The notes under the pieces are model-generated. The model was not told the origin of the DNA and made no database searches. It saw only the letters and a program-made list of their open reading frames with translations. A stretch of DNA of 50,975 nt. Source: Candidatus Yanofskybacteria bacterium. Its GTDB lineage: Bacteria; Patescibacteriota; Minisyncoccia; 2-02-FULL-40-12; GWA2-44-9. Shown here one piece after another: positions 171-50,922 of this stretch. Where the stretch lies: the NCBI GenBank assembly GCA_003151795.1, contig PLYL01000022.1:1-50975 (forward strand), written 5' to 3'. The position numbers were made by a program, and so were the translations under genes. How positions within the stretch are numbered: the stretch's first letter is position 1; each line of letters starts with the position of its first letter.

Positions 171-302
171 CCACCAAACGAAACATTGTCGGAATTAAGA
201 AAACGGAGCGATTTTGCGGGAGCCAAAATCGCGCTATCATTTTTTTCAAAACCCTTTCCGCCTACGGCGGAAGCCGTGAATTCCCAAAGCTCCCCCCAAT
301 TG
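171..302. repeat. 132-bp inverted copy of 1717-1848 (LSR1 3' end plus tRNA CCACCA)
   Basis: ccaccaaacgaaacattgtc...ctccccccaattg is the reverse complement of caattggggggag...gacaatgtttcgtttggtgg. Confidence 0.95.
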
Positions 303-1848
303 AAATCATGAAAGAACTCAAACCAAAATATTTTCTCTACGCGAGGAAATCAACAGAGGATGATGACCACCAGATAATGTCTATTGAGGCACAGCTTTTT
401 GAATTGCACGAATATGCGCGTAGAGAAAATCTTGAAATTCTTGAGGAATTTCAAGAGTCGAAAAGCGCAAAGAAACCGGGTCGTGAACTATTTAACGAAA
501 TGATGGCCCGCATTGAAAATATGGACGGCGTAGGCATCCTCGCGTGGCATCCAGACCGTCTTGCTCGCAATAGTGTCGACGGCGGGCGCATCATTTACGC
601 AGTAGACACGACCAAAATAGTTTCTTTACGCTTTCCGACATTTTGGTTTGAGCCAACTCCGCAAGGCAAATTTATGTTGCAGGTGGCGTTCGGACAGAGT
701 AAGTATTACAGCGATAATCTAGTTGAAAATATTACGCGTGGTATCCGCCAAAAAGTCCGTCGAGGCGAGTGGTTGGTGCGCGCTCCCTTTGGCTATGTGA
801 ATAATCCAAAAACGAGAAATATTGAACCTCACCCGACTAAATCTCGCATTGTGGTGAAAGCGTTTGAAGAATACGCCAAAGGGACGCACACCCTCGGCAC
901 TATCGCGGACTTTTTGGCGGATCACGGCGTGAGTACGAAAGGAACGCCACCTGCCAAAGCTTCCGTCGCTCGTATGCTCTCAAATCGTGTCTATCTCGGC
1001 TTTACATACCACAAGGGCGAGTATTACGACGGAAGCTTTGCGCCAATTATTTCTCCGACACTGTTTGAAGCAGTCCAAAAAATGCTTGCGAAAAAATCTC
1101 GCCCTCGCGTGCAAAAAGTACCGAACCATTTTCCATTTGCACAATTCGCTCGGTGCGGTGAGTGCGGAAGTATGATTACGGCTCAATATGCGACAAATCG
1201 TTTTGGTACTAAATATACTTACTATCGCTGTACCAAAAAGAAAGGTGTTTGTCATCAGCCGTATCTATCATCTTCCGCACTCATTTCGCAAGCAAAAAAT
1301 CTGCTTCAATCAGTGTCGCTTCCTCTTTCAGAAATTGAGAACATGGAAAAGCAAATTGACTTGTGGGACAAAGAGTCAATTTCCGAAAGAGGAAGTGTTG
1401 CCCAAAATCTTAAAACCAAACTTTCCGAAACGAAGGAGAAGCTGGACAAACTTGTTTCCATTTATCTTGACGGCGATATTGAACGCGAAATATATTTACA
1501 GCGAAAAGACCTTCTCCTTCGTCAGAAAGCAACGTTTGAGGAAAGTTTTAAGGATTTTGGGCAACAGAGAAAAAATTGGGTCGAACCCTTGCGGAGTTTC
1601 GTTTTGTCTTTGAGAGAAGCCGTTATTTTGGAAAAAAGCGAAAACTATTTCGCATGGAAAGAGTTTTTCCAAAAAATCGGCTCTAACCCTATTCTCAAAG
1701 ACAAAACGCTTTCATGCAATTGGGGGGAGCTTTGGGAATTCACGGCTTCCGCCGTAGGCGGAAAGGGTTTTGAAAAAAATGATAGCGCGATTTTGGCTCC
1801 CGCAAAATCGCTCCGTTTTCTTAATTCCGACAATGTTTCGTTTGGTGG
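171..1848. mobile_element. LSR integrative element 1 at the tRNA-Ala(GGC) 3' end; left part continues beyond the window start
   Basis: LSR gene reads into the antisense tRNA 3' end; 132-bp inverted repeat 171-302 / 1717-1848 ends at the tRNA CCACCA. Confidence 0.8.
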
Positions 1849-1864
1849 ACCGTACCGGACTTGA
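308..1864 (+). CDS. Large serine recombinase (resolvase, recombinase and Zn-ribbon domains plus coiled coil)
   Basis: YARKS catalytic motif, DRLARN, PFGY, CGECG...YYRC...C. Confidence 0.95.
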   Translation: MKELKPKYFLYARKSTEDDDHQIMSIEAQLFELHEYARRENLEILEEFQESKSAKKPGRELFNEMMARIENMDGVGILAWHPDRLARNSVDGGRIIYAVDTTKIVSLRFPTFWFEPTPQGKFMLQVAFGQSKYYSDNLVENITRGIRQKVRRGEWLVRAPFGYVNNPKTRNIEPHPTKSRIVVKAFEEYAKGTHTLGTIADFLADHGVSTKGTPPAKASVARMLSNRVYLGFTYHKGEYYDGSFAPIISPTLFEAVQKMLAKKSRPRVQKVPNHFPFAQFARCGECGSMITAQYATNRFGTKYTYYRCTKKKGVCHQPYLSSSALISQAKNLLQSVSLPLSEIENMEKQIDLWDKESISERGSVAQNLKTKLSETKEKLDKLVSIYLDGDIEREIYLQRKDLLLRQKATFEESFKDFGQQRKNWVEPLRSFVLSLREAVILEKSENYFAWKEFFQKIGSNPILKDKTLSCNWGELWEFTASAVGGKGFEKNDSAILAPAKSLRFLNSDNVSFGGPYRT

Positions 1865-1918
1865 ACCGGTGACCTCTTCGATGCCATCGAAGCGCTCTAC
1901 CAGCTGAGCTAACGGCCC
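1843..1918 (-). tRNA. tRNA-Ala(GGC)
   Basis: GGGCCGTTAGCTCAGCTGGTAGAGCG-CTTCG-ATGGCAT-CGAAG...GGTTCAAGTCC...GGTCCACCA; G3:U70 pair. Confidence 0.97.
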
Positions 1919-4227: not shown

Positions 4228-4280
4228 TTGACGGAAATTTTTAGAGAGAGTACACTTAATTGTAACAAAGATTATTACAA
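4228..4280 (+). promoter_or_regulatory. Sigma70 promoter and palindromic operator of the TA operon
   Basis: TTGACG-17 bp-TACACT, followed by TTGTAA-N9-TTACAA. Confidence 0.6.
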
Positions 4281-4286
4281 AAAATA

Positions 4287-4499
4287 ATGAGAAACATTAT
4301 AAATATTTCGTTACCAAAAGAACTTGTGATGTCAGTAAAAAAAGAAGTTAAAAGGGGCAATTTTGCCAGTACAAGCGAATATTTCCGCCATCTTTTGCGC
4401 ATCCAGAAAGCGGCAAATGAGATCGAGGAAGCGCGTAACGACTGGGAGAATGGCCGTAAGAATTGGAAAGTATTGAAATCGCTTAAGGAATTGATGTAG
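4287..4499 (+). CDS. Ribbon-helix-helix (ParD-like) antitoxin
   Basis: INISLP...GNFASTSEYFRHLLR; lies directly upstream of a RelE-like toxin. Confidence 0.8.
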   Translation: MRNIINISLPKELVMSVKKEVKRGNFASTSEYFRHLLRIQKAANEIEEARNDWENGRKNWKVLKSLKELM

Positions 4500-4503
4500 G
4501 CTA

Positions 4504-4761
4504 ATGAAAATCTTTTACCACGCGAACTTCAAACAACAGTTTAAAAAGTTGCATCGCAATATACAGCTCTCGGCGTTGCACAAGGAACAAATTTTCAAAA
4601 TTGACCCATTTGATAAAAGCCTCGAGACCCACAAACTTCACGGACCGTTTAAAAACTCGTGGGCTTTTTCCGTGAACAACAAGTACAGGATAGCTTTTGA
4701 TTTTATGGACAATGATTTAGTTCTTTTCTTCGCCATAGGCACCCACGATATTTATAAATAA
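4504..4761 (+). CDS. RelE/ParE superfamily toxin
   Basis: 85 aa; HKLHG, YRIAF, IGTHDIY. Confidence 0.85.
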   Translation: MKIFYHANFKQQFKKLHRNIQLSALHKEQIFKIDPFDKSLETHKLHGPFKNSWAFSVNNKYRIAFDFMDNDLVLFFAIGTHDIYK

Positions 4762-4774
4762 AGAATATACGGCC

Positions 4775-5452
4775 ATGCGCGTCGCGATTTTTGGGAACAA
4801 TAAAGCTGAAGCGGAAAATCTGGCCGAGAAGGCCGGCTTCACTTTGGCTGATGACAAGCTGGATTTTGTCGTCAGTTACGGCGGAGATGGCACGTTTATG
4901 AAATCAGAGTTCGCGTATCCAGGCGTGCCGAAAATAGTTTTGAAAGATAGCCAAATCTGCAAAGTCTGTTCGGCATTTCCGAACGATGAAGTGCTGGCCA
5001 AAGTCCGAGCGGGGAGCTATGAGATTAGACCGCTCATCAAACTTGAAGCCACCGCCAATGGCCGGGCTATCACCGCCATGAACGATATCATCGTCCATAA
5101 CTCCGACCCGCGCCATGGCATCCGGTATCAAATTTGGTCAGATGGCCGTCAATTCGGCGATACCATCATCGGCGACGGCGTCGTCGTGGCCACGCCGTTC
5201 GGTTCCACGGCCTACTACCGAAGCATCACCGACAGCTTCTTTGAAACCGGCCTCGGCTTGGCCTTCAACAACAGCACCGAGCAGATGGACCATGTCGTCC
5301 TTGATGACCAGAAGACTATCAAGATTAAAATCACCCGCGGTATGGTCGGTGTCTACGCCGATAATCAGGAAGAACATTTAAACCTAAAAGAAGATGACGA
5401 AGTGGTAATTAAAAAATCAGCTTCGGTCGCACAGTGGGTAATAGTGAAATAG
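4775..5452 (+). CDS. nadK: NAD(+) kinase
   Basis: GGDGT, ND, GDGVVVATPFGSTAY. Confidence 0.9.
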   Translation: MRVAIFGNNKAEAENLAEKAGFTLADDKLDFVVSYGGDGTFMKSEFAYPGVPKIVLKDSQICKVCSAFPNDEVLAKVRAGSYEIRPLIKLEATANGRAITAMNDIIVHNSDPRHGIRYQIWSDGRQFGDTIIGDGVVVATPFGSTAYYRSITDSFFETGLGLAFNNSTEQMDHVVLDDQKTIKIKITRGMVGVYADNQEEHLNLKEDDEVVIKKSASVAQWVIVK

Positions 5453-5462
5453 CTTAATAATT

Positions 5463-5652
5463 GGGCCTGTCGTAAAGTGGTATTATACGACATTCGTTCA
5501 CCCGCCCAAACTTTCCCCTGGGCCCATAGCTCAGCTGGTAGAGCGCGTCATTCGCATTGACGAGGCCGCCGGTTCGAATCCGGCTGGGTCCACAGGAAAG
5601 TTTAGGCGGGCAAGTTGCCGGGTCGGGAGTCCGATTCTCCCCAGGTCCACCA
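5463..5652 (+). tRNA. Interrupted tRNA-Ala-like gene (outer), with a roughly 115-nt insert in the anticodon loop
   Basis: 5' half GGGCCTG-TC-GTAA-AGTGGTA-TTAT-A-CGACA-TTCG; 3' half TGCCG-GGTC-GGGAG-TCCGATT-CTCCC-CAGGTCC-ACCA; G3:U70 pair. Confidence 0.75.
5520..5592 (+). tRNA. tRNA-Ala(CGC), nested inside the outer tRNA-like gene
   Basis: Canonical cloverleaf: GGGCCCA/TGGGTCC, CGTCA-TTCGCAT-TGACG, GGTTCGAATCC. Confidence 0.96.
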
Positions 5653-7119
5653 GAGAGGAAATTGCAAGTTTTTGGGCATAGGGCCGCCGCAGGCGGCCAC
5701 CAAATCGTAAGGAATTTTGGGCGAAAAAAGCAGTTGGCGATTCTGCAAAATGCAGTTCGAGCCGATATTTTTAAGAAATGTTGTCATTTCCGATTTGTTT
5801 TCAAATTCAAGCAGTTTAGAGGCTTGATTCAAGGACAAAACAAACTCACGAGCCGGTTCGAGCCAAGATAATCCTATTTGTTCAAAATCCGTAATTTTCT
5901 CGCCAAGCCCTACCTTTTGGATAACAAGGATTTCCTTTCTTACTTTGTAGTCATCGGCAGAAATGACCTCGTTAAGATATACGTCAAGAAGTTTTTGGAG
6001 TTTGGCCTCAATCTTGGTTAATTCTGTTTTGAAATTTTGAACAGTAGTTTTAGCTTCCTCTTTTGCTCGGCTTTCATCTTTTTCTAGCTCGGCTAAAACT
6101 TTCTTGGTGTCTTGGCTTGACAAAGAAACTTTTTGAAGAAACGACTTAACTTGTTTATATAGTTCTTCATCTCGCAAAAAATACTTTTCTTGGCACGGCC
6201 CTTTCTTTTTCGTGCACCGATAGTAAATATATTCTCTACCGCTTGGCTTGATTTTCTTTTCGGCTGTTATAGCTGCAGAACAAGGACATTTCATTAAGCC
6301 AAGAAAAGCAAAATTATGTTTCTTAATTTTTTGCGATTTTCCTTTTTCTCGCATGATCTCTTGTACTCTATCAAAAAGTTTCTTTGAAATAAGCGGCTCG
6401 TGAGTTCCTTGGAAAATTTCTCCTTTGTATTTCATCAGCCCTATATAAAAAACATTTTGGAGTATTTTAGGGACTTGCGAGATATACATACCTTTATCCA
6501 AATTGCTTTTGGTACTTACTCGCATATACCACTCGGCTAATTCTCGGAGGTTGTAATTTCCAGTGGCATAAAGCTCAAAAAGTTTTTTTACTTTGCGGGC
6601 TTTTTCTGTATTAACATCAATCCCGCGTGTCTTTGGATTATTGAGATAGCCGAGCGGTGCTTTGCTAGGCCAAACTCCGTTTCTCACTTTTTGTCTCATC
6701 CCACGAGTTACATTTTCACGTAGGGCGTCCACATAATATTTTGATTGGCCAAAAGCAATTTGGAGCATAAAAAGTCCTTGTGGCGTTGGTTCAAACCAAA
6801 ATGTTGGAAATTTCAACGCTTTAATCAAGCCGCGATCTATCATGTGAATTATTCTTCCGCCATCTACGGAATTACGAGCAAGACGGTCGGGATTCCACGA
6901 AAGTATGCCGTCCGCTTTTCCTCTCTCAATCAATGCCAACATTTCTGCGAATTTAATTCGCCCAGGTTCTTTGGCAGTTTTTGCCTCTTGAAGAGAGGCG
7001 ACGATTTCAAGTTTTTCTTTGGCGGCAAATTCTTTTAACTCAAAGATTTGGGCCTCAATACTCAAAATTTGTCTATCGTCATCTTCGGTGCTCTTGCGAG
7101 CGTAAAGTATATATTTCAT
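5602..7119 (-). CDS. Large serine recombinase
   Basis: YARKS, DRLARN, PLGY, CPC...YYRC...C, coiled coil; C-terminus reads into the antisense tRNA. Confidence 0.95.
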   Translation of the reverse strand: MKYILYARKSTEDDDRQILSIEAQIFELKEFAAKEKLEIVASLQEAKTAKEPGRIKFAEMLALIERGKADGILSWNPDRLARNSVDGGRIIHMIDRGLIKALKFPTFWFEPTPQGLFMLQIAFGQSKYYVDALRENVTRGMRQKVRNGVWPSKAPLGYLNNPKTRGIDVNTEKARKVKKLFELYATGNYNLRELAEWYMRVSTKSNLDKGMYISQVPKILQNVFYIGLMKYKGEIFQGTHEPLISKKLFDRVQEIMREKGKSQKIKKHNFAFLGLMKCPCSAAITAEKKIKPSGREYIYYRCTKKKGPCQEKYFLRDEELYKQVKSFLQKVSLSSQDTKKVLAELEKDESRAKEEAKTTVQNFKTELTKIEAKLQKLLDVYLNEVISADDYKVRKEILVIQKVGLGEKITDFEQIGLSWLEPAREFVLSLNQASKLLEFENKSEMTTFLKNIGSNCILQNRQLLFSPKIPYDLVAACGGPMPKNLQFPLWWTWGESDSRPGNLPA

Positions 7120-7152
7120 ATGGTTTTGATTAAAAATTTTCTTTTCCCAAAA

Positions 7153-7253
7153 TGCAGAATCGCCAACTGCTTTTTTCGCCCAAAATTCCTTACGATTTGG
7201 TGGCCGCCTGCGGCGGCCCTATGCCCAAAAACTTGCAATTTCCTCTCTGGTGG
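7153..7253. repeat. 101-bp inverted copy of 5647-5747
   Basis: tgcagaatcgcc...ctctggtgg is the reverse complement of ccaccagag...ggcgattctgca. Confidence 0.95.
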
Positions 7254-7338
7254 TCTATTCTTAAAGTAGTTCGGACGCATTTCGCCGCCAAGGGCGGCGG
7301 GGATCTGGCCAAAAATTCCGAACCGAAATTCTGAACTT
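7250..7338. repeat. 89-bp inverted copy of 8294-8382
   Basis: gtggtctattcttaaag...ttctgaactt is the reverse complement of aagttcagaa...ctttaagaatagaccac. Confidence 0.95.
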
Positions 7339-7446
7339 AAAAACTGCCAAAGAACCTGATAAAAATATCGGCTCGGACCGCATTTTAATTTTGGGAAAAG
7401 AAAATTTTTAATCATTTATTATTAAATCATTAAGCATATAATTTTT

Positions 7447-8229
7447 ATGTCTAACGAAGAATACAAACCAATACCCAAGGAGGTTACAGGCGCAGAAACA
7501 TCTATGCCTGCTGAGCATAGTGAGGCAAGAAGCAAAGATTACAAAACATACGACATTCCAAGACTCACACTAGATTTAACCAACGAACTTGAAACCAAGC
7601 TTATTGTCCCACTTGAAGAAGCTCGTCAAGTCAAGGCTGCTTTAGAATCACTCGAAGATCTTGCGAAGCGTGTTCCAATTAGAATCATCAAAAGTTCTTT
7701 TTCTGGCGGTAGTGGTCGTGCAGATCCTCATAACGAAGGTCCCGGCCCGTGGGCTCCTGAAACAGCAATTAGATACTTGGAATTAGAAGGTCCAGAAGTT
7801 GGATCCCTCAACGAACTTGCATCATCTCTTCGCTATCTAATTGTGGATTTTAACACCGCGAGGAAAGCTGCTGTATCAATTAAACAACAAGGTGGATCAG
7901 GGAAGAAGGCTTTTATTATGATACCTAATTCTGAAGAGAATGGCCTCTATGTAAATCTACATAAGGCCATAGATAAGAAGGGTATAATCGACCACTTTGA
8001 ACCAATAGCACAAGCCAAACTGGATAATGTCACTCAGGAGTGGATTCCACGACTTAGGTCTAATATAAAGAGTACTTTCTTAAAGGCAGTGGAGATTCTT
8101 CGAGAATCCGCTGCAAATCCATCAAGTTGGTCGGATTCGAGTGACCCCTCAACATTCCCCAAGGATCGTCCTGAAACTCTCTTGAGTTTAGCAAAGGAAA
8201 TTGAGGAAATGGAAAGACATATAAACTGA
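7447..8229 (+). CDS. Hypothetical protein, sole cargo of element 2
   Basis: 260-aa ORF with ATG start, divergent from the LSR; no recognised motif. Confidence 0.75.
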   Translation: MSNEEYKPIPKEVTGAETSMPAEHSEARSKDYKTYDIPRLTLDLTNELETKLIVPLEEARQVKAALESLEDLAKRVPIRIIKSSFSGGSGRADPHNEGPGPWAPETAIRYLELEGPEVGSLNELASSLRYLIVDFNTARKAAVSIKQQGGSGKKAFIMIPNSEENGLYVNLHKAIDKKGIIDHFEPIAQAKLDNVTQEWIPRLRSNIKSTFLKAVEILRESAANPSSWSDSSDPSTFPKDRPETLLSLAKEIEEMERHIN

Positions 8230-8479
8230 GTCTGGGGCCTTAGAGTTCAAATAAGAAGAGAATTTGCCGCCAAAGAAAAACTTGAAATTGTCAAAGTTCA
8301 GAATTTCGGTTCGGAATTTTTGGCCAGATCCCCGCCGCCCTTGGCGGCGAAATGCGTCCGAACTACTTTAAGAATAGACCACAACGTTGTCAACATAATT
8401 CATTGGAAGTGGATAAGTGTCTAGTGAAAATAGAGATCCCTAAATTAGGCCTTGTTTTTCCTTAGTTTTTAATGCTTAA

Positions 8480-9004
8480 ATATCTCTATATGCGACAGGA
8501 AAGCTAGCGTATATATCGGGGTCGTTCCATGTTCAGTCCAACAGTGCACGGCAGATTCTACGCGAACACGGAATTTCCTACGGTGACAACATTCGATCAA
8601 TCGTGCGCGCAGTCGTCGAAGACATCATCGGCCGAGGCTGGTCGGTGGTACTCGACGGCATGATGTTGGGGGAAGACGAACGTATGATCGTGCGCAACCT
8701 CGCCACCAAGTACAACGCCCTGTTCTCTTTCAACGCCATGATCTGCGATCCAAACCTGGCCGAAGAACGAGCGAGGAAACGATATGCGGACGGCAAGGAG
8801 TCAAGCTTTGAAGATTGGCGAGCCAGTGATCCGGAACAGTATTTCAAGGACATCCACAGCCGCACCAAGCTCGTGGAAGAACTGCTCGCCAAAATCCCGA
8901 CTGATCCGCTGGAACGGATCGGGATGATCGACAACAACGCCGGCGAGCAAGATCTGGTCAACTGGCTGCACCCGATCTGGAGAAACATTGCCAACCGACT
9001 GTAA
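8480..9004 (+). pseudogene. Possible 5'-degraded AAA_33/nucleotide-kinase-like gene
   Basis: GWSVVLDG and CDPNLAEERARKR lid-like segment; open frame extends to about 8480 without an ATG or intact P-loop. Confidence 0.45.
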
Positions 9005-9016
9005 ACCCAGAACTCC

Positions 9017-9046
9017 AAAATGGGGTCCGCCACGGACCCCATTTTT
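9017..9046 (+). terminator. Rho-independent terminator
   Basis: aaaatggggtccg-cca-cggaccccattttt. Confidence 0.8.
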
Positions 9047-9079
9047 TCTTTGGTTGAAATAGGCTAAAATACAGGACAC

Positions 9080-49423: not shown

Positions 49424-50746
49424 ATGAACAATACAACCCAAGTGCCAATCGGGGCTATGGCCAAGGGAATACCAGCCCCCATAAAGGTCAGATATTGCCT
49501 GTATGCAAGAAAAAGCACCGAGTCAGAAGAACAGCAGATCCTCAGTATAGATAGCCAAATCAAGGAGATGCTGGCTATAGCCGAGCGTGACCATCTGGAA
49601 GTAGTAGAGATCAAGAAGGAATCCCACTCTGCCAAGGAAGCCGGACAACGACCAGTCTTCAATGAAATCGTGGATGAAATCAAGATCGGCAAATTCAATG
49701 GCATCCTGACCTGGGCGGCCGATCGTATCTCCCGAAACGCCGGAGACTTAGGCCGAATCGTCGATCTCATGGATAGCCAACAACTCATTGAAATCCGAAC
49801 CTATGGGCAGAAATTCACCAATAGCCCGAATGAGAAGTTTCTTCTTATGATTCTCGGGAGCCAAGCCAAGCTCGAGAACGACAACAAGGTCGTAAATGTA
49901 AAGCGAGGGCTAAGAGCCAGATGCGAGATGGGCTTGTGGCCATGTACTGCCCCGACCGGATATCTAAACAGCACCAGCAAGGAGAAGAGTTGTCATGTTG
50001 AGTTAGATCCCCACCGAGCACCCGTCATCAAGAAGATGTTTGAAAAGATAGCTTATGAAAAATACAGCGGCCGGAGATTACACGCTTGGCTCAAAGATGA
50101 ACTGAAATTCACGACTAAGAATGGCAAGCCACTTACAATCAGTAATATCTATCTGACTCTTCGCAATACCTTCTACTATGGTAGTTTTGAATATCCGAGA
50201 GGCGGAGGTCAGTGGTATACCGGCAAGCATACGCCCATTATTACTAAGGAATTGTTTGATGCCGTTCAAGCCCAGATGTCAGACTATGAACTCAAAGGAA
50301 GCCATAAGGAGTTTGCCTTCACGAAATTAATGACCTGCGGTCTCTGTGGCAGTGGCATTACCGCCGATGAGAAATTCAAGAAACAGCAGAATGGCAATCT
50401 CCATCGCTATGTCTACTATGGTTGCTCAAGATTCCAAAATAAGAATTGCAAATCCGGCTATATGCGAGAGGAAGATTTGATTGAACAACTAGCTGGTCTT
50501 ATGGACAAGATCGACTTGGACGAGATTGGCATAAAAGAACGAATCAAATCTGAAATCGAACGGCACAAGAAATTCCAATCAGGGCTTCTTGGTATCAGAG
50601 AAAAATCAATCAAAGTTGGCGATATTGATATCCGGAACTATGCTAAATATATACTAAGAGACGGGACGATATTGGAGAAGCGGGAGTTACTAACTTGTCT
50701 GAGGAGTAAGATAACGATGGCGAACAAAGAAATTAAAATCATCTAG
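49424..50746 (+). CDS. Large serine recombinase (short C-terminal region)
   Basis: YARKS, DRISRN, PTGY, CGLCG...YYGC...C. Confidence 0.94.
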   Translation: MNNTTQVPIGAMAKGIPAPIKVRYCLYARKSTESEEQQILSIDSQIKEMLAIAERDHLEVVEIKKESHSAKEAGQRPVFNEIVDEIKIGKFNGILTWAADRISRNAGDLGRIVDLMDSQQLIEIRTYGQKFTNSPNEKFLLMILGSQAKLENDNKVVNVKRGLRARCEMGLWPCTAPTGYLNSTSKEKSCHVELDPHRAPVIKKMFEKIAYEKYSGRRLHAWLKDELKFTTKNGKPLTISNIYLTLRNTFYYGSFEYPRGGGQWYTGKHTPIITKELFDAVQAQMSDYELKGSHKEFAFTKLMTCGLCGSGITADEKFKKQQNGNLHRYVYYGCSRFQNKNCKSGYMREEDLIEQLAGLMDKIDLDEIGIKERIKSEIERHKKFQSGLLGIREKSIKVGDIDIRNYAKYILRDGTILEKRELLTCLRSKITMANKEIKII

Positions 50747-50750
50747 CTGA

Positions 50751-50796
50751 AAGCAAAGGAAAACCCATCAAATATTCGATGGGTTTTCCTTTGCTT
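50751..50796. terminator. Terminator hairpin between LSR3 and tRNA-Arg
   Basis: aagcaaaggaaaacccatc / gatgggttttcctttgctt. Confidence 0.8.
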
Positions 50797-50850
50797 GACT
50801 CAACCGAACCGGTGTCGCCTTGACCCCGTTCGGTCGGTCTCACATGCCTG

Positions 50851-50922
50851 TGCGCCCGGAGGGAATCGAACCCCCACCAACAGCTTCGAAGGCTGCTGCT
50901 CTATCCGTTGAGCTACGGGCGC
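50851..50922 (-). tRNA. tRNA-Arg(TCG)
   Basis: GCGCCCGTAGCTCAACGGATAGAGCA-GCAGC-CTTCGAA-GCTGT...GGTTCGATTCC...CGGGCGCA. Confidence 0.96.

Follow-up and report, generated by a model that had tools for sequence, protein, structure and literature searches.

The question raised by this locus is why a small integrated element should carry, between its own genes, an intact and inverted copy of the joint that its two ends would form. The window, i.e. the whole stretch of DNA analysed here, comprises 50,975 nt of contig PLYL01000022.1 (Candidatus Yanofskybacteria bacterium, GCA_003151795.1), and the element occupies positions 5647-8382. The first-pass annotation had described a large serine recombinase (LSR) element with a second, inverted attP, and our analysis confirmed this observation, both repeats being exact and the 186-nt site being as claimed. 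The main features are as follows.

171-1848 (+): second element of the same design, with arms 171-302 and 1717-1848 around an LSR gene at 326-1720 (+).
5602-7119 (-): LSR as integrated, 505 aa, with Resolvase (PF00239), Recombinase (PF07508) and Zn_ribbon_recom (PF13408) domains; PHROG integrase, 1.7e-70.
5647-5650 (no strand): core CCAC at attL, the 4-nt overlap of the two repeat families, common to all three sites.
5647-5747 (no strand): outer X arm (P' arm of attP), a 101-nt 100% repeat that, by its reading frame, also codes for LSR residues ~458-490.
7153-7338 (-): internal intact inverted attP copy, made up of X' (7153-7253), core GGTG (7250-7253) and Y' (7250-7338).
7447-8229 (+): cargo ORF of 260 aa, divergent from the LSR gene, no family match.
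8294-8382 (no strand): outer Y arm (P arm of attP), here attR, an 89-nt 100% repeat with its core at 8379-8382.

The 101-nt inverted repeat arms 5647-5747 and 7153-7253, and likewise the 89-nt arms 7250-7338 and 8294-8382, are 100% complementary. Since the inner arms have the 4 nt at 7250-7253 in common (GGTG, the reverse complement of CCAC), the 186-nt segment 7153-7338 is the exact inverted end-joint, that is, the exact reverse complement of the right end of the element fused to its left end at CCAC. Exact repeats of 89-101 nt inside 4 kb are far beyond chance, and the 186-nt site has matches at only three places in the 766-kb assembly, the two ends and the internal copy, with spacings of 955 and 1405 nt (about 1.0-1.4 kb) between the copies. 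Crossover is presumed to take place within the 4-nt CCAC core. The G+C content is 0.35-0.45 within the element and 0.47-0.56 in the flanks. The element thus departs from the normal arrangement, in which integration divides the sole attP between attL and attR: an intact inverted copy persists at 7153-7338.

At its left end the element adjoins the remains of a tRNA gene.

5520-5593 (+): intact upstream tRNA-Ala(cgc), separated from the element by 53 nt (ARAGORN; Rfam tRNA, 69.2 bits).
5620-5650 (+): displaced 31-nt 3' fragment of tRNA-Ala (T arm and 3' strand of the acceptor), the left half of attB, ending in the core.

The boundary at CCAC with a tRNA-Ala 3' end, proposed in the first-pass annotation, was upheld. 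The element is absent from the same locus in two genomes of the genus, G012, which reads NAD kinase, tRNA-Ala(cgc), ~40 nt and helicase, and G009; the insertion is present or absent at one locus among related genomes. The 3' flank of the locus differs between species. The piece adjoining the left end is a displaced tRNA-Ala 3' fragment rather than an intact tRNA, a point absent from the earlier note; it is of native type and, judged by eye, similar to the 3' portion of the tRNA-Ala that G009 has at this locus. In 23/50 loci of the family, the outer arm and a tRNA 3' end have 3-8 nt in common. A T-arm word pattern was found in 25/119 cases as against 4/640 controls, and was left out of the evidence as overly strict. 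An Rfam search of the targets of L035, L038 and L032 gave no family.

Among contigs built from reads at k=31 (depth 2-5; four runs from three studies) we found neither a circle joint nor an empty site. A contig from X1 showed the reference linkage at the Y arm, and contigs from X5 and X6 connected 7339-7391, in reverse complement, with the right flank by way of the Y arm, an 'opposite strands' joint of 7250 with 8383. Since the 89-nt repeat is longer than k=31 and the runs X5 and X6 have gaps beside the repeat, these opposite-strand paths may be graph chimeras and were left out of the evidence. Loose contig ends at 5594, 5620 and 5650-5652 were tRNA-like pieces from other organisms or strains.

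The survey of homologous LSR loci, suggested earlier as a test that could overturn the observation, did not do so. Upstream of the LSR gene, the attL arm recurs in inverted form in 47/51 assessable loci of the genome set and 50/51 of the metagenome set, and the layout of tRNA end, X, LSR, X'·Y', cargo and Y is common to about a hundred related elements of Patescibacteria-type bacteria; loci of the same family are kin, and the genome and G-labelled sets overlap, so that these counts do not represent independent events. Both abutting repeat pairs were detected in 10/20 of the first loci and 60 second (Y) repeat pairs were found, the X arms showing a median identity of 99% across loci. L069 and a few others have lost the internal copy and are still located at tRNAs. 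The 766-kb genome itself harbors five copies of the family, including the second element listed above, whose outer arm extends into the 3' end of the gene for tRNA-Ala(ggc) (1843-1918, minus strand) and whose cargo side runs off the contig. One-genome-per-species records hold 591 relatives, and viral contigs only 11, all distant.

The recombinase is a typical member of its class, with matches to PF00239 over residues 4-150 (E 9.6e-21), to PF07508 (E 1.1e-12) and to PF13408 (26.3 bits, cut-off 25.3). In an alignment of 10 family members R8, K9 and the catalytic S10 are invariant, as are C278, C280, C302 and C309 of the Recombinase and zinc-ribbon part. Among solved structures, relatedness in sequence was found only to C-terminal domains of the A118 integrase and to a single catalytic domain from the resolvase family. 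The presumed crossover falls within the recombinase gene, and the LSR frame runs through the core into a conserved tail. In 97/102 distinct inner sites this frame stays open for at least 9 codons beyond the core, the corresponding numbers for the other two frames being 23 and 48, and the median open length past the core is 27 codons as against 5 and 4.5. The tail carries the motif W-x(5-10)-RT in 81/102 distinct inner sites, and in 39 motif-selected sites the third codon position is the most variable (1.20 bits, compared with 0.86 for the first and 0.42 for the second). The internal copy, read on the plus strand, corresponds to the final 60 codons of the circle form of LSR (ORF 7152-7334), whereas the final 15 aa of the integrated LSR are encoded by the antisense strand of the tRNA fragment.

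Since the LSR frame crosses the core into the conserved tail, integration is expected to truncate the enzyme. We infer that in an excised circle of 2,732 bp the LSR gene would read over the joint and end 27 codons on, giving a protein of 517 aa, and that integration at a target ending in GGTCCAC would exchange the conserved tail for 15 codons of antisense tRNA. The cognate tail is present in three proteins of 517-519 aa, P0001, P0012 and P0013, from contigs 3345, 3233 and 1970 nt in length; the contigs may represent circles, or the assembler may have taken a path through the 101-nt repeat, and they were left out of the evidence. P0011 and P0017, near-identical to tail-bearing proteins, end in tRNA-antisense sequence. 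The apparent tail-bearing copy G095:C6 turned out to be a 5'-deleted gene with an unrelated end. The internal copy as source of a free 60-aa tail peptide was also considered and rejected, because a start codon is present at the border between U (defined below) and X' in only 2/11 elements.

Around the internal site we found four short inverted matches (I3, I4, I5 and I7), absent from the earlier note.

5747-5773 (no strand): Xext, a piece coding for the LSR C-terminal part (I5, 27 nt, 93%), with its inverted copy at 7360-7386.
6963-7036 (no strand): N2 (6963-6982) and N1 (7000-7036), LSR codons ~28-52 (I7 and I3), with inverted copies at 7339-7358 and 8256-8292.
7127-7153 (no strand): U, the 27 nt directly upstream of the LSR start (I4), with a perfect inverted copy at 7388-7414.
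7339-7414 (+): leader N2'-Xext'-U'; in the minimal relative L088 a colinear region precedes the LSR start.
8256-8292 (no strand): N1', inverted copy of LSR codons ~28-40 (I3, 37 nt, 95%), adjoining the outer Y arm.

Xext has the same arrangement in 28/34 elements, and N1' adjoins the outer Y arm in 23/34. The DNA fold of the U/U' region is strong (-59.7 kcal/mol, z -5.4); a structured RNA at the internal site was rejected, there being no Rfam match and the fold being explained by the U/U' repeat. The minimal relative L088 lacks both internal copy and cargo and has the order host, c'Y'-N2'-Xext'-U'-LSR-X'c', tRNA; it aligns colinearly with positions 7250-7414 of the window and with L024, of which the cargo ATG is aligned with the LSR ATG of L088.

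The internal copy together with its small flanking pieces fits one ancestral inverted duplication. In this model the segment consisting of the first ~40 LSR codons, the 5' leader and attP would have been duplicated in inverted orientation within a minimal element devoid of cargo (L·M·R giving L·R'M'L'·R), the duplicate would have been retained, and passenger genes would have taken the place of the duplicated LSR 5' end, so that the cargo would now be preceded by an intact copy of the junction and by the native LSR leader. The model accounts for every short inverted piece, and the positions fit in 28/34 elements. The presence of N2'-Xext' upstream of the gene already in L088 is unaccounted for, and was counted against it.

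The cargo slot agrees with such a replacement, the cargo genes being different in every element and occupying the position of the LSR start codon in the minimal form. The elements are 2.6-4 kb in size with one or few cargo genes, including those for enolase, DHODH, a fluoride channel, glycoside hydrolases, methyltransferases and restriction-modification; the cargo proteins are mutually unrelated (mean column identity 6%; differing Pfam families). The 260-aa cargo ORF of this element gave no match in Pfam, PHROGs or PADLOC, and its Atlas matches were all below 0.9. The largest cargo ORF is directed away from the internal site in 29/34 elements and faces it in 5/34.

In the internal copy a promoter-like pair, TTGCAA-N17-TATTCT, spans the core on the plus strand with 8 of 12 matches as counted by eye; the promoter scan of the window, with a threshold of 9 of 12, did not list this pair. 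When scored in one fixed register spanning the core, 22/39 sites gave 8 or more of the 12 matches and 13/39 gave 9 or more; on the reverse strand, the best score reached 9 in 1/39 sites. In 14 more distant sites the fixed register is not promoter-like, though the design is kept. Integration would also split the -35/-10-like pair at the ends. Taken as a whole, the best reading is that the internal attP is a retained and constrained junction copy heading the cargo cassette, for which it would serve mainly as a permanent control region, as an LSR-binding site and probably as a promoter. Gene conversion would hold it identical to the ends. For this combination of ancestral duplication, cassette control and repair by gene conversion we have modest confidence, somewhat on the favourable side. 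The length of 186 nt, which exceeds the need of a promoter or an operator, was counted against the control role.

Other roles, or none, have to be weighed against this reading. As the internal site is identical to the joint over 186 nt, LSR should bind it, and the first-pass annotation had suggested capture of attB through it; however, a full-length LSR starting beside the tRNA, the product expected of integration through the internal site, was found in 0/80, 0/80 (cognate) and 0/68 loci, and no split element between two tRNA-type half-sites was met among the loci examined, so that a working second attP, with either site of the circle able to integrate or the internal one able to recombine with an attB on another molecule before any excision, appears unlikely. 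Inversion of the 2-micron type, also raised there, found no support either: the cargo segment was flipped in 0/28 informative elements and the LSR segment, with its gene joined to the cognate tail, in 0/80, 0/80 and 0/68 loci, the single case of LSR joined to a foreign arm (1/80) being L138, in which LSR runs into the Y' arm of another subfamily. The absence of a flipped segment from every locus argues against flip-flop, and the two orientations of an invertible segment do not both occur in these data; all these counts refer to consensus assemblies, which could miss isomers of low frequency or occasional recombination at the internal site. The same counts bear on a reactivation switch, in which integration would disable or change LSR and rare inversion through the X arms would restore the full-length enzyme for excision without a recombination directionality factor (RDF). 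Integration removes the conserved tail, precisely those lost codons are present in frame in the internal copy, the X arms have the length and near-identity that homologous inversion demands, and no RDF-like gene is conserved, because the cargo differs everywhere; but the gene was never seen joined to its cognate tail, and repeated flipping, excision and reintegration should have left the cargo flipped in some elements, which makes such a switch distinctly improbable. Self-contained directionality, with the circle encoding full-length integrase, integration removing the tail and the inverted attP serving as the spare gene end that re-arms excision, we likewise consider rather improbable.

The copy could be functionless, left by one inverted duplication and persisting through gene conversion from the selected ends. 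The duplication model needs no function of the copy to account for the anatomy, differences in the X arm are nearly uniform (67/4720 beside the core and 136/6272 further out), and the few elements lacking the copy, such as L069, are still at tRNAs. A neutral relic is nevertheless hardly probable, considering that the copy is kept in 97/102 assessable loci of small, deletion-prone genomes, that the 40 nt of the Y arm beside the core show about four-fold fewer differences than the rest (10/2000 versus 58/2756 positions), and that the cargo direction is biased. A folded substrate, in which a single-stranded circle anneals joint and internal copy into a duplex attP, had also been proposed, and the two copies are perfectly complementary. 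Serine recombinases act on two duplexes and break all four strands, which on a loop-closed stem would leave chromosome breaks capped by hairpins; loops of 1.4 and 0.95 kb would be involved, no replication, rolling-circle, transfer or ssDNA gene was found in the element with Pfam and PHROGs, and L088 sits at a tRNA end without an internal copy, which L069 lacks too, all of which renders this proposal barely conceivable. Equally remote from credibility is an assembly artefact in which integrated, circular and inverted forms were mixed: the repeats are longer than the k-mers in common use, contig breaks are frequent near the sites and L027 has an N gap within its site, but the design recurs at ~100 loci with element-specific arms and in four contig-name styles (scaffold_, NODE_, k141_ and contig_), and the junction words U-X' and Y'-N2' must occur in reads for the assembly to contain them. 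Fusion of two circles with palindromic sites was rejected, because the core has no palindromic dinucleotide.

With serine integrases of the phiC31, Bxb1 and A118 type the LSR shares its class and the domain order Resolvase, Recombinase, Zn ribbon, and the elements share a short identical core at the ends and variable presence between related genomes. They differ from that type by the crossover in the recombinase gene, the second intact inverted attP, the targeting of the last bases of tRNA genes, the size of 2.6-4 kb and the lack of a conserved directionality factor. In SSV1-type archaeal viruses attP lies inside the integrase gene and integration partitions the gene, but that enzyme is a tyrosine recombinase and its gene is left in two large parts, whereas here only the final ~27 codons are replaced, and the element carries a duplicate of them. 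The yeast 2-micron plasmid is a circle with two long inverted repeats, each with a recombination site (FLP/FRT); in the present elements there are no replicon genes and neither segment is flipped in assembled copies. In CTXphi/XerCD and integron attC, close inverted copies fold into single-strand sites on which tyrosine recombinases exchange one strand pair; pairable inverted copies exist here as well, but the recombinase is of the serine class and ~1 kb (955 and 1405 nt) separates the copies. For Tn4451/Tn4453, with the LSR TnpX, the circular form creates a promoter at the joint, according to the title of Lyras and Rood 2000 (cited in PMC13023037). In the present family a candidate -35/-10 pair spans the core in 22/39 sites; the joint copy, however, is permanent in the integrated element and faces the cargo, not the recombinase. 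Tycheposons of Prochlorococcus are small integrative, tRNA-targeting and cargo-carrying elements, of which 910/937 use a tyrosine recombinase and the rest an LSR (bioRxiv 10.1101/2020.12.28.424599); many carry replication genes, and the portion of that account used here does not mention an internal inverted attP, nor does the term attP occur in it. We found no published description of an inverted-attP LSR design or family, and supplementary att-site tables may bear on its novelty.

The crossover within the gene and the retention of an intact inverted joint lie outside the textbook picture of serine integrases, and raise the testable question of how direction and cargo expression are controlled without a directionality factor. 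If self-contained directionality were true, the activity state of the recombinase would be written by its own recombination products. The family is also a source of numerous compact integrases whose attP and tRNA-end attB sites come as natural pairs. For Patescibacteria-type genomes, it is a widespread family of very small mobile elements shuttling single accessory genes, and these elements may be a main route of gene gain in organisms otherwise poor in mobile elements.

The inverted repeats reported in the first-pass annotation were reproduced exactly: 5647-5747 pairs with 7153-7253 (101 nt, 100% identity) and 7250-7338 with 8294-8382 (89 nt, 100% identity), the overlap of the two inner arms being the 4-nt core at which crossover presumably takes place. 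The left outer arm is designated X, the right outer arm Y, their inverted inner copies X' and Y', and the core c. The 186-nt internal site, the inverted copy of the joined element ends (attP), is found nowhere else among the 25 contigs (766 kb) of the assembly. The length of the element is 2,736 bp and its G+C content is below that of its flanks; family searches gave no match for its cargo ORF. The features of the window are as follows.

5602-7119, minus strand: large serine recombinase (LSR) ORF, 505 aa, with all three large serine recombinase domains
7447-8229, plus strand, divergent from the LSR: cargo ORF, 260 aa
5520-5593: intact tRNA-Ala(cgc), bracketed by 26-nt inverted flanks (5501-5526 and 5585-5610)
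171-1848: second element of the same design, with perfect inverted arms of 132 nt (171-302 and 1717-1848)
326-1720: LSR paralogue of the second element, 48% identical
49490-50566: third, shorter serine recombinase, 37% identical over 348 aa

The outer arm of the second element overlaps the 3' end of a tRNA-Ala(ggc), and its cargo side lies beyond the contig start. Near the third recombinase are a tRNA-Arg(tcg) (50850-50922) and a 23-nt palindrome (50751-50796); because long inverted repeats are absent, 49490-50922 represents a different kind of element.

Adjoining the left end of the element are 31 nt similar to part of a tRNA (T arm and acceptor 3' strand), namely the tRNA-Ala(cgc) that G009, a genome of the same genus, has at this locus; the intact tRNA-Ala(cgc) of the window is separated from the element by 53 nt on the upstream side. 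A second genome of the genus, G012, has NAD kinase followed by tRNA-Ala(cgc), some 40 nt and the helicase, and therefore lacks the element, which is absent from G009 too. The tRNAs of both genomes end with GGTCCAC followed by C or A, consistent with the left boundary, while the downstream flank is not conserved. Since window 8383-9076 is likewise missing from G012 and is replaced by other genes in G009, the tRNA locus is a variable hotspot. This stretch, between the element and a UvrD-like helicase, is G+C-rich and carries an AAA_33 kinase-fragment ORF (8603-9004). At the right boundary, attR, a sigma-70-like hybrid site is present on the minus strand (8365-8393; 10/12): its TTGACA belongs to the host flank and its TAAAGT, after a 17-nt spacer, to the Y arm. 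The site is directed inward, facing the LSR and antisense to the cargo. The intact tRNA-Ala(cgc) has on one side the 3' fragment 5620-5650 and on the other, at about 5446-5479, a piece that by eye resembles a tRNA-Ala 5' half. The stretch 5446-5650 thus has the appearance of a native gene into which an entire replacement tRNA was inserted. In read run X2, 5497-5614 is missing from one contig (depth 2.2).

The inverted-attP observation is real and general. Of the 62 genomes of the family, 37 have LSR homologues, among them the source genome, which carries five LSRs of this kind. Both repeat pairs abut at a middle site in 10 of the 20 loci fetched with wide flanks, and 2 more have the LSR-flanking pair; an N gap breaks the site at locus L027, and a contig edge adjoins the gene at L029 and L039. 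A one-genome-per-species scan and a metagenome scan yielded 591 and 475 relatives, respectively, labelled in the record titles as Patescibacteria or Parcubacteria-group lineages with a few other labels, and 80 loci were retained from each. Among assessable loci (those with the 3' end of the gene and at least 300 nt upstream), the attL arm recurs in inverted form upstream of the LSR in 47 of 51 (genome set) and 50 of 51 (metagenome set), although these counts are not independent events because the loci are related and the sets overlap. The second (Y) repeat pair was found 60 times; in the genome set, 20 of the 36 loci that extend 3 kb or more upstream have it, and the cargo can exceed 4 kb. In 23 of 50 loci a tRNA predicted by ARAGORN shares the last 3-8 nt of its 3' end with the outer arm; many different tRNAs are involved, and the orientation is constant, with the LSR 3' end toward the tRNA in all. 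Two paralogous elements on contigs C2 and C15 of the source genome (L035:5951-5996 and L038:5838-5883) adjoin a shared non-tRNA sequence that ends in ...CCGAGTGGC|CCGC and gave no Rfam match.

The cargo is different in each element, ranging over enolase, DHODH, NAD(P)HX dehydratase, CrcB with DUF190, glycoside hydrolases, multicopper oxidase, a SET protein, DNA methyltransferases and restriction-modification genes, and for 29 of 34 elements the largest ORF is oriented outward from the internal site. Full-text searches, covering the main texts of articles in non-subscription journals, turned up neither an LSR element with an internal inverted attP nor an attP inside an LSR gene, and returned no paper pairing Patescibacteria with large serine recombinase or Parcubacteria with serine recombinase.

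The crossover point falls within the recombinase gene itself. Reading of the window LSR as it would be in the circle (body, X', core, Y') gives a protein of 517 aa, of which the end is identical to that of ORF 7152-7334. Beyond the core, the LSR frame remains free of stops for 9 codons or more in 97 of 102 distinct inner sites, against 23 and 48 for the other frames (medians, 27 codons versus 5 and 4.5), and the pattern W-x(5-10)-RT is found in 81 of the 102. Third codon positions were the most variable (1.20 bits versus 0.86 and 0.42) for 39 motif-selected sites, the selection itself biasing positions 1 and 2. In every assembled copy but one the LSR gene continues into antisense tRNA instead of the cognate tail, which was contiguous with the gene in 0/80, 0/80 and 0/68 copies. 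The sole exception is L138 (2627-2846), where the LSR X'-core continues into a Y' arm belonging to a different subfamily and resembling those of L041 and L171, forming a hybrid site of two elements with an open foreign-type tail.

The window core is spanned by TTGCAA (7233-7238), a 17-nt spacer and TATTCT (7256-7261), a promoter-like pair of 8/12 noted by eye and under the scan threshold. In one fixed register, a score of at least 8 was obtained for 22 of 39 sites and at least 9 for 13 of 39, while the reverse strand reached 9 in 1 of 39; 14 more distant sites did not fit this register. That the LSR TnpX has a joint promoter is indicated by the title of Lyras and Rood (2000), cited in PMC13023037. 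Of 128 inner X arms, 103 have the outer arm of the same element as their nearest match (12 ties; median identity, 99.0% versus 94.9% for the best foreign arm), a case of concerted evolution. Differences between Y arms fell at 10 of 2000 positions up to 40 nt from the core versus 58 of 2756 farther out, and those between X arms at 67 of 4720 near the core versus 136 of 6272 farther out; by these counts the centre of the internal copy looks constrained.

Three mechanisms had been proposed in the first-pass annotation for the internal site. Flip-flop inversion as in the 2-micron plasmid is contradicted by the fixed orientation of both segments, and no products of capture through the internal site were seen, both judged on consensus assemblies, from which rare events could escape. 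The enzyme class, loops on the kilobase scale and the lack of a ssDNA gene argue against a folded single-strand attP, as does L088, which is without the copy yet resides at a tRNA end. The boldest reading, that the internal copy is part of a self-contained on/off switch of the recombinase, we consider improbable. The variant loci are listed below.

L088 (position 4262-4510): 1.75 kb in all, the minimal form, lacking both cargo and internal site
L069: cargo present, internal site absent
L073: fusion of the Y' arm with the LSR at about residue 40
L227 (contig C6 of genome G095): first 19 codons lost

Short inverted pieces of the LSR gene and leader (I3, I4, I5 and I7, corresponding to N1', U', Xext' and N2') surround the internal site, at the same positions in 28 of 34 elements and never in a flipped position among the elements surveyed. 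N1' adjoins the outer Y arm in 23 elements, N2' adjoins the inner Y' arm in 5, and in 28 some 20 nt separate Xext' from the inner arm. The order in L088 is host, c'Y'-N2'-Xext'-U'-LSR-X'c', tRNA-Arg, and by alignment this region is colinear with window 7250-7414. If L stands for N1-a-U, M for Xext-N2 and R for Y-c-X, the composite is written L·R'M'L'·R; such an inverted duplication, about 390 nt long, would explain all the short pieces, and the duplicated LSR start would subsequently have been replaced by cargo. The cargo ATG of L024 is aligned to the LSR ATG of L088. The best-supported reading is that of an LSR mini-element residing at tRNA ends, in which the internal attP would be a retained inverted duplicate of the joint at the head of a cargo cassette.
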